A stretch of 64,000 nucleotides of DNA, taken from sequence record PP554575. One strand, given 5' to 3'. The notes under the pieces are model-generated. The model saw only the letters and a list, made by a program, of their open reading frames with translations, had not been told where the DNA came from and searched no databases. Origin of the DNA: Escherichia phage PMBT16. The position numbers were made by a program, and so were the translations under genes. Shown here one piece after another: positions 40,824 to 41,873 of this stretch. Numbering within the stretch: position 1 is the first letter of the stretch; the number at the start of each line of letters is the position of its first letter.

Positions 40824-41873
40824 TTAAGCTTCTTCGACAATTCCTGCACCCAGGATTTTTTCATTGAGCTCTTTTGCTGTTTTAATAATATTGTCCACAA
40901 GACGCTTGCGAGTCTTATCTTTCACCTTAACCTCTTCACCGCCGTTCAGAGTAGTCTTCAATTGAGACAGAATATCCTGAAGTTCAACGACAGAGAATCT
41001 CTGCAGATCTTCTGAAGTAATCTCACCCAGGGCAATTCGGACGGTCTCGCCACTTTCCATCTGCAGATTCAGGAACACAGTGTGAACATCACCTTTCGAA
41101 CCACCCGCTTTTGCAGATTCAACAGCATGAACTAACTCATCTAAAGATGTGCACTGATGAATCTCCGGAAGACCTGCTTCACCTAACACGCCTTCTTCAT
41201 CACCTTTTGCCAGAAGCTTTTTCGGTTTTTGTCCGTTCTGGATGCGTTGTATGTTGCCTTCATCCAGAATAATAGCTCCAGTGCGTGCTGCCAACTCTTC
41301 TCCGTCCAACCACACTTCGCCACCAGCTGTGATGGATGCGATCTCATCTTCTGTCAGCACCCCACCGTAGTATTTTTCGATCAGGTGTTCAAAACGTTTT
41401 TTCCAGTAGCTGACCTGAGTATTCATGTTAACACCGTTACCATAAGTGCCACCTTGATAGTAGTGGAACATAAATTCTGTGTCCGGAGCCACAGTACGTT
41501 CTTTGCAACCAAGCCATAAGATTGTTCCAGCAGAGCAGCACATCCCTTCAGCATGTGCAACAACGCTTGCCTGAGACTCGCGGAATGCCTGCAGATAGGC
41601 CATTGCAATGTGCACGCAACCACCAGGGCTATTGATGATCACACGAATGCTTTCTTCCGGCTGAGCCATACGGATCGTCTGCAGACGAGACATATGATCC
41701 TGCAGGTCCTCCAAATCGTCGATATAAAGAACGTGGTCAACAACAGGTGTTGGGTAGCTGTATGTTTCCATGATACCGCCCGGCATACCAAACATTTTAT
41801 TACTCATAGGTTCGAAACCGTTCTGTTTTTCTTTCATGCCGTGTACCATGGTGCTGCGAGGTGTTAAATTCAT
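40824..41873 (-). CDS. ClpP-like serine protease with C-terminal extension (349 aa)
   Basis: INSPGGCVHIAMA segment resembles ClpP active-site Ser region; AAGGA RBS. Confidence 0.6.
   Translation of the reverse strand: MNLTPRSTMVHGMKEKQNGFEPMSNKMFGMPGGIMETYSYPTPVVDHVLYIDDLEDLQDHMSRLQTIRMAQPEESIRVIINSPGGCVHIAMAYLQAFRESQASVVAHAEGMCCSAGTILWLGCKERTVAPDTEFMFHYYQGGTYGNGVNMNTQVSYWKKRFEHLIEKYYGGVLTEDEIASITAGGEVWLDGEELAARTGAIILDEGNIQRIQNGQKPKKLLAKGDEEGVLGEAGLPEIHQCTSLDELVHAVESAKAGGSKGDVHTVFLNLQMESGETVRIALGEITSEDLQRFSVVELQDILSQLKTTLNGGEEVKVKDKTRKRLVDNIIKTAKELNEKILGAGIVEEA

Follow-up and report, generated by a model that had tools for sequence, protein, structure and literature searches.

The gene considered here corresponds to gene 122 of phage rV5, whose product was entered as "ClpP (ATP-dependent) protease subunit" (349 aa, 38.5 kDa) in a supplementary gene table in 2013 (PMC3606486). 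The DNA analysed, referred to below as the window, comprises 64,000 nucleotides of Escherichia phage PMBT16 (sequence record PP554575); it is a Vequintavirus, i.e. an rV5-like myovirus, and carries the same gene, gp122, on its minus strand at positions 40824–41873. An earlier note, made from the sequence of the window, had placed a ClpP-like protease of 349 aa at this location, and the list of open reading frames (ORFs) agrees, giving 349 codons plus a stop codon and an ATG start with a ribosome-binding site, AAGGA, 7 nt 5' of it. The gene itself is no new discovery, because the ClpP-like annotation in rV5 dates from 2013, and an annotated ClpP-like gene is now present in more than 100 phage records. 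A 3.2-kb stretch containing the gene matches Escherichia phage ime (MN850576.1) at 100% identity, and among 122 matching phage records nearly all share 90–99.9% identity with it and one 80–90%, with annotations such as "ATP-dependent protease subunit", "ClpP-like protease" or similar. For its function the earlier note had proposed either a prohead protease fused to a scaffold and moved out of the structural module or a phage protease aimed at host proteins. The analysis described here indicates that gp122 is not a head-maturation protease and, to judge from its sequence, that it is probably not a conventional subunit of ClpXP or ClpAP.

The assignment of gp122 to the ClpP fold is supported by profile, sequence and structure comparisons. 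Pfam CLP_protease matches residues 59–168 (E 3.5e-12, 47 bits; gathering cutoff 20.2), whereas PHROG 5410 ("ATP-dependent protease") spans nearly the whole protein, with residues 24–345 aligned to profile positions 4–322 of 323 (E 2.2e-154). The short-form family PHROG 1827 covers the core only (E 3e-40), and the best PDB sequence matches are all ClpP. In an AlphaFold2 (AF2) model built on 39 homologues, residues 1–42 are disordered, with a predicted local distance difference test score (pLDDT) below 50, and the core (residues 45–215) is confidently modelled with a pLDDT of ~85–94. Foldseek aligned this core to ClpP structures over 160–174 columns with target-normalised template modelling (TM) scores of 0.65–0.70; the top 50 PDB matches are all ClpP, and the handle region is included in the ClpP fold. 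Within the N-terminal region, N25, F28, G29, Y40 and P41 are conserved despite the predicted disorder in the monomer, and this region could be a propeptide or form axial loops.

Ser114, in the motif GMCCSAGT, and His137 align with Ser97 and His122 of ClpP and show no variation among 39 close and 13 diverse homologues. The segment INSPGGCVHIAMA (residues 80–92) holds the motif INSPGG and corresponds to the conserved oxyanion-hole region of ClpP, including the Gly68 equivalent. The earlier note was thus right about a ClpP-like region in the N-terminal half of the protein, and mistaken in reading INSPGGCVHIAMA as the serine site, the nucleophile being Ser114. The alignment of E. coli ClpP produced by MAFFT was unreliable past the catalytic histidine (handle and C-terminal part), and its mappings of D171 and L189 were discarded. 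With a manual register (DRFLSAPEA / EVWLDGEEL), the Asp171 position is occupied by Glu186 in gp122 and by glutamate in ime, CR8 and PaZq-1, by aspartate in ICP1 and ValKK3, and by glutamine in the 4MG-type (Seunavirus-type) majority of the family.

Tests of family membership place gp122 between the named groups. The NCBIfam clpP equivalog TIGR00493 scored 33.2 bits against a cutoff of 308.6, and no NCBIfam ClpP model reached its cutoff, all others falling far below. The best NCBIfam model was NF045542 (ClpP-related head-maturation protease), with 60.6 bits against a cutoff of 120. The protease therefore belongs to the ClpP clan as an equivalog of neither clpP nor NF045542, and its sequence appears to lie rather nearer to the ClpP-related proteases of phages than to cellular ClpP. 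A relationship to S49/SppA-type or NfeD-type proteases was not found: the Pfam models NfeD1b_N and SDH_protease scored 19 bits (cutoff 40) and 15.7 bits (cutoff 31.3), and SppA gave no match in the NCBIfam search. The profile comparison of ClpP with S49 and prohead protease families, which the earlier note had recommended, favours a ClpP-like protein, with no S49/SppA-type or NF045542 match above threshold.

The separation of gp122 from head maturation is seen in the complete genome of phage WalterGehring (MZ501111), which is 99.6% identical and contains a canonical head module at 3.2–7.7 kb, ordered portal, prohead protease, scaffold candidate, decoration protein and major capsid protein. The protease of this module (139 aa) matches Pfam Peptidase_S78_2 (XkdF-type) with 65 bits against a cutoff of 24; the portal is Mu-type and the major capsid protein matches Phage_cap_E. 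The ClpP-like gene lies at 108.7–109.7 kb, ~100 kb from the head module and the major capsid gene within it. The head module falls outside the window, beyond the reach of the earlier note; within the window the neighbours of gp122 are PhoH, a methyltransferase (MTase) and NrdG. Five tryptic peptides of gp122 and its mass were looked for in the mass spectrometry table of rV5 virions, and none was present (PMC3606486). Likewise, the virion proteome of Certrevirus CB7 (26 proteins) lists the head-module protease CB7_5 together with a protein resembling a scaffold; a ClpP-like protein of ~34 kDa is absent from it (PMC7344957).

The predicted transcription signals point the same way. A predicted promoter 5' of ORF103, the small gene directly upstream of gp122, reads TTGACA-N17-TATTAT, matches 11 of 12 positions of the sigma-70 consensus, and has the same hexamers and position as P121 of rV5. 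A rho-independent terminator, GCCCTC-TTCG-GAGGGC-TTTTAT, occurs as a single exact match in the window, between the stop codon of the protease and the start of the MTase. In rV5, the predicted sigma-70 promoter P121 and terminator t122 bracket genes 121 and 122 (Table S4), and a T4-late-like promoter motif was found upstream of structural genes only (PMC3606486). ORF103 and the protease are accordingly predicted to be a co-transcribed two-gene unit bracketed by promoter and terminator. Timing data are available for the homologue gp211 of phage ICP1, which shares 35% identity with gp122 over the core (BLASTP) and lies at the end of the ICP1 nucleotide-metabolism gene range. A subset of the nucleotide-metabolism genes in ICP1 gp176–gp211 peaks at 12 min rather than 16 min in RNA sequencing (RNA-seq), and the ICP1 capsid operon (ICP1 gp122–126), with its own predicted protease gp125, is late (PMC7567579, PMC9040626). 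The separate S78_2 head module, the absence from the two virion proteomes, the predicted promoter and terminator of its own and the separate capsid protease of ICP1 leave the displaced prohead protease-scaffold fusion without support, and gp122 is not the canonical maturation protease.

Docking of ClpP on ClpX or ClpA involves a hydrophobic pocket for IGF/IGL loops, formed in E. coli ClpP by L23, L48, F49, A52, Y60, Y62, F82, I90, M92, F112, L114 and L189 (bioRxiv 10.1101/820209). Mapping of this pocket was confined to the stretch from INSPGG to the catalytic histidine, where the alignment is unambiguous; L48, F49, A52 and L189 were not reliably mappable. The residues of the E. coli ClpP sequence used agree with the published ones at the seven mapped pocket positions and the three triad positions. 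Six of the seven mapped positions are polar or small in gp122. Tyr60 is replaced by Arg77, Phe82 by Glu99, Ile90 by His107, Met92 by Glu109 and Phe112 by Thr127, each of them invariant in 39 sequences, and Leu114 is replaced by a polar or small residue (Ser/Ala129). Only Tyr62, replaced by Ile/Val79, remains hydrophobic. Polar or charged replacements dominate in distant relatives too. Since invariant polar residues take the place of the hydrophobic pocket, gp122 is unlikely to work as a standard component of host ClpXP or ClpAP. The label "ATP-dependent protease subunit", frequent in databases, is probably misleading, as the docking surface for Clp ATPases does not appear to be conserved.

Beyond the core, gp122 has a C-terminal extension, noted earlier as 150 aa long; its existence is confirmed, and its length is ~135 aa (residues 216–349), divided into a hypervariable disordered linker of ~50 aa and a folded module of ~85 aa. 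The linker varies in length and sequence in the family alignment, with pLDDT below 50 at residues 222–240 and 258–262. Residues 265–342 of the module are modelled with moderate confidence (pLDDT 70–87) as a β-hairpin, a short helix and two long helices. Residues F293, E297 and R322 are invariant in the family alignment, and nearly all members have an acidic module (isoelectric point, pI, 4.1–4.6). The module alone matches PHROG 5410 with an E-value of 6e-37. A search of 1.84 billion representative proteins with a profile built from the module gave six matches, of which five are the same fusion family or its fragments; the sixth, P0042, is a eukaryote-type leucine-rich-repeat protein and was rejected as spurious. 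The one significant match in BFVD, a phage protein of 303 aa, appears to be a family member, given its length and complete coverage. With matches confined to its own fusion family, the module is therefore, on the searches made, a lineage-specific orphan restricted to the gp122 family. It may be a protein-protein interaction domain or a domain that recruits a substrate or partner. A helix-extended-helix interpretation (SAP, HeH or Rho-N-like) was considered and dropped, as the matches were insignificant and the module is acidic. Long C-terminal extensions are also found in the homologues of ICP1 (326 aa) and of Vibrio phages 249E41-1 (322 aa) and F92 (308 aa). By eye they resemble the gp122 module, but BLASTP aligned the core only and hhalign gave a probability of 0.1%, so that homology with the gp122 module is not supported.

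The genes around gp122 form a conserved block on the minus strand, in the order PhoH, ORF103, protease and MTase, which bears out the placement between a Dam-like MTase and PhoH and away from head genes in the earlier note. ORF103 is basic (pI 8.8) and has no match in Pfam, the PDB or PADLOC; the PADLOC scan for defence systems also returned nothing for the protease. The MTase shares 62–65% identity with its counterparts in 4MG and CR8. The arrangement PhoH, one to three small ORFs, protease and small MTase is common to Vequintavirus, Seunavirus (4MG) and Certrevirus (CR8). In ICP1 (Mohonavirus), PhoH is followed by two ORFs and the protease, in the unclassified Vibrio phages 249E41-1 and F92 by one small ORF and the protease, and in the unrelated Barbavirus (80 kb, ~25% identity) by the protease and a Dam MTase. 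Overall, PhoH lies upstream on the same strand, with zero to three small ORFs in between, in 8 of the 13 isolate contexts sampled; no adjacent PhoH was seen in the isolate contexts of Pakpunavirus, KVP40-like ValKK3, two T5-like phages and an N4-like phage. In Otagovirus phiPsa397, a Pseudomonas phage (L011:2648-4013), the PhoH gene runs 8 nt into the start of the protease gene, which hints at translational coupling of the two in Otagovirus.

A metagenomic sample of 79 IMG/VR loci was scanned with a hidden Markov model built from eight phage PhoH proteins. Of the 19 loci whose protease is at least 33% identical, 18 have PhoH upstream in the same orientation, compared with 0 of the 60 more distant loci. 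Every Vequintavirinae-type locus has an ORF103 homologue upstream (17/17) and an MTase downstream (17/17). Loci of the Seunavirus/Certrevirus type (L004:2603-3235, L005:2575-3168, L020-L032) carry two further conserved genes in the interval from PhoH to the protease, one of ~200–210 aa (with a DprA-like annotation in CR8) and one of ~160 aa, both of which Vequintavirus proper is without.

Homologues of gp122 occur in 941 phage records; those in T4-like (ValKK3), T5-like, Pakpuna-, Otago- and Barbavirus genomes are located among DNA-metabolism or lysis genes, not among head genes. The distant IMG/VR loci (~28% identity) were initially taken as a contrast group representing head modules, which proved wrong, as their flanking ORFs are mostly DNA-metabolism genes: a PHROG scan of the flanks returned mostly QueE-like proteins, polymerase, primase/helicase and GTP cyclohydrolase, and only a few portal, capsid or head-closure neighbours. 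Since the distant loci too lie mostly outside head modules, ClpP-fold peptidases of this accessory kind, separate from head proteases and encoded in DNA-metabolism modules, occur widely among virulent phages. At least ten of the distant loci (L039-L073) have the ClpP-like gene near a QueE-like radical S-adenosylmethionine (SAM) gene, two of them also with GTP cyclohydrolase, which places the accessory protease within 7-deazaguanine DNA-modification or replication modules there. In Klebsiella phage vB_Kpn24-P2 (L010:3387-3998), a ClpP-like 'head maturation protease' is encoded between a deoxynucleoside monophosphate kinase and the holin/endolysin genes, and the T5-like Proteus phage PL1 (L014; Demerecviridae) has the same arrangement; the label in vB_Kpn24-P2 is probably a transfer of a profile name and no real assignment.

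On balance, we consider it fairly probable that gp122 is an accessory, non-virion, cytoplasmic serine peptidase of ClpP fold that is expressed before the late genes, forms a ring, is non-canonical with respect to ClpX and ClpA, and recruits a partner through its tail. Such a protein would be made early to middle in infection together with nucleotide-metabolism and replication genes, and would be co-transcribed with ORF103 before the late structural genes. Ser114 and His137 would make up its active site, with Glu186 in the place of the ClpP aspartate. On the model of ClpP, the protein would probably assemble into a ring-shaped, self-compartmentalised peptidase, probably without canonical docking on host ClpX or ClpA, and the flexible linker would tether the acidic lineage-specific module, which may recruit a partner or substrate. 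The second proposal of the earlier note, a protease directed at host proteins, is compatible with everything found, also when widened to cytoplasmic proteins of the phage. Neither a functional study of this protease family nor a described linkage of PhoH and ClpP in phages was found in the searchable literature.

Several points weigh against this interpretation. The loss of the pocket is read from a sequence alignment, Tyr60 is kept in two distant relatives, and a non-canonical interface with an ATPase could still exist. The triad chemistry is not uniform across the family, because the third residue is glutamine in the Seunavirus-type majority. The expression class in Vequintavirus is derived from promoter and terminator predictions and from RNA-seq of a homologue only 35% identical, and the ICP1 timing describes a gene range and not gp211 itself. 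Maturation proteases are often lost from mature heads, and for that reason the absence of gp122 from mature virions would also be compatible with a transient role in the procapsid. Finally, the oligomeric state, activity, partners and substrates of gp122 are properties that we infer.

Three other explanations were weighed against the same evidence. A genuine ClpP-type subunit that hijacks host ClpX or ClpA, redirecting host ATP-dependent proteolysis during infection, is what the database name "ATP-dependent protease subunit" implies; it would share the ClpP fold and the Ser-His-acid active site, would suit a phage with no obvious Clp-type unfoldase, whose annotated genome offers only a MoxR ATPase and PhoH, and might find some encouragement in the Tyr60 of the two distant family members. 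It is nevertheless unlikely given the replacement of six of the seven mappable pocket positions, the wide shortfall of the clpP equivalog score, and an N-terminal axial-loop region unrelated in sequence to that of ClpP. A displaced or second capsid-directed protease, with a scaffold-like or capsid-targeting tail and head or internal proteins as substrates, appears very improbable. The head-maturation profiles are its nearest ones (phrog_1684 with E 8e-22, and NF045542, which at 60.6 bits outscores any cellular ClpP model), and the acidic helical tail is reminiscent of scaffold or targeting segments, but the NF045542 score is only half of the cutoff, and the canonical head module has a protease and scaffold of its own. 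Moreover, gp122 was missing from both virion proteomes, its predicted promoter is of the sigma-70 type rather than the late motif found in rV5 upstream of structural genes only, the ICP1 homologue falls in a mid-infection gene range and ICP1 has a separate late capsid protease, and none of the isolate lineages examined has the gene in a structural context.

The remaining possibility is that PhoH, ORF103 and the protease work together as an ATP-dependent machine specific to the phage, which would degrade or remodel its targets, perhaps RNA-protein complexes. It would operate without host ClpX or ClpA, with docking through the charged surface that replaces the pocket, through the acidic tail, or both; the invariant charged residues could form such a different interface. 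The recurrence of PhoH upstream of the protease in isolates and in the closer metagenomic loci, together with the 8-nt overlap in phiPsa397, favours this arrangement, which we regard as unlikely all the same. The gene order could simply have been inherited vertically in distantly related myovirus lineages, the window has a predicted promoter between PhoH and the ORF103-protease pair, and Pakpunavirus, T5-like, KVP40-like and N4-like relatives have the protease without adjacent PhoH. PhoH is, moreover, an SF1-helicase-like P-loop protein and is not known to be a protein unfoldase. An accessory cytoplasmic peptidase remains the preferred reading of gp122. Features of the locus are summarized in Table 1.

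Table 1. Features of the gp122 locus in the 64,000-nt window of Escherichia phage PMBT16
Feature	Position	Strand	Basis
ClpP-like protease coding sequence (rV5 gp122; PHROG 5410)	40824..41873	-	ORF list, Pfam, PHROG, PDB matches, rV5 gene table
N-terminal region, residues 1–44	41742..41873	-	pLDDT and conservation
ClpP-fold catalytic core, residues 45–215	41229..41741	-	pLDDT, Foldseek, conservation
Ser114 codon	41532-41534	-	within core
His137 codon	41463-41465	-	within core
Glu186 codon (D171 equivalent)	41316-41318	-	manual register
Hypervariable disordered linker, residues 216–264	41082..41228	-	alignment, pLDDT
Orphan acidic C-terminal module, residues 265–349	40827..41081	-	AF2 model, alignment
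PhoH-like P-loop ATPase (rV5 gp120), conserved upstream neighbour	42347..43135	-	Pfam PhoH E 3.6e-47
ORF103 (rV5 gp121, phrog_5456), 103 aa	41934..42245	-	ORF list; phrog_5456 E 5.6e-39
Small N6-adenine MTase-like protein (rV5 gp123), conserved downstream neighbour	40239..40772	-	weak Pfam Dam and EcoRI_methylase matches
Predicted sigma-70-type promoter, rV5 P121 equivalent	42274..42302	-	promoter scan, rV5 Table S4, direct reading
Rho-independent terminator (rV5 t122)	40788..40809	-	exact single match in window, rV5 Table S4

Other features of the window were recorded alongside. A perfect sigma-70 promoter (12/12; TTGACA-N18-TATAAT) at 43664-43693 on the minus strand precedes a 116-aa ORF (43174-43524) and PhoH, and corresponds in type and position to P118 of rV5. 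A region of ~2.3 kb at 26200-28500 is without a substantial ORF; plus- and minus-strand gene blocks converge there and the GC skew changes sign. It contains several repeats, among them one inverted (18 nt; 26714-26731 / 26848-26865) and one direct (20 nt; 26681-26700 / 26955-26974), both perfect. The genome map of rV5 marks a 'non-coding' box, which may correspond to this region (PMC3606486). No tRNA or Rfam family was found in the window. A 285-aa ORF at 44724-45581 (minus strand) carries three CPEHG-x-F...GCP-x-C zinc-finger-like repeats; in MZ501111 the corresponding ORF is labelled a putative homing endonuclease and adjoins an intron-split anaerobic nucleoside triphosphate reductase gene. 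About 18–19 GenBank records named 'Campylobacter phage' (host C. jejuni; MG065644, MG065647, MG065658, MG065661, MG065662 and others) are 97–99% identical to this E. coli Vequintavirus, and are probably mislabelled or contaminant genomes.

By itself the gene is ordinary, and its ClpP-like identity was already in the databases. What is added here are membership tests with a negative outcome, the evidence against a role in head maturation, the orphan tail and a quantified linkage to PhoH. Phage PhoH serves widely as a marker gene, and its tight pairing with the protease offers a concrete, testable hypothesis for its long-unknown function; a machine of PhoH, ORF103 and protease, if real, would be the first functional handle on phage PhoH. 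Accessory ClpP-fold peptidases occur in experimentally tractable phages, including ICP1, T5-like phages and the BASEL Vequintaviruses.

Three known groups are the natural references for gp122. It shares its fold with bacterial ClpP (MEROPS S14; TIGR00493; E. coli ClpP, PDB 1tyf/1yg6), as well as the INSPGG oxyanion motif, the serine in G-x-x-x-S-x-G, the catalytic histidine, the handle-helix region and, with the manual register, an acidic residue at the Asp171 position (Glu186). The two differ in that identity is only ~27% over 131 residues, and in that the phage protein has an unrelated N-terminal region, carries the additional 135-aa linker and orphan module, and is encoded in a PhoH-MTase block. 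Phage head-maturation proteases (NF045542; PHROGs 1684, 94, 133 and 2976) provide the best-scoring named profiles for the core (E 1.8e-16 to 8e-22) and are likewise phage-borne ClpP-fold peptidases, often with C-terminal extensions or fusions; gp122, however, is located outside the head module, is absent from virions and has a non-late transcription context. The 'ATP-dependent protease' families of virulent phages, PHROG 1827 and 5410, are the same accessory family as gp122, with members that include ICP1 gp211, KVP40-like ORF255 and genes of Pakpunavirus, Otagovirus, T5-like phages and Barbavirus. These resemble gp122 in their non-structural context throughout and in the PhoH gene that is often directly upstream, and the short forms of 182–203 aa differ from it in lacking the gp122-type C-terminal module.

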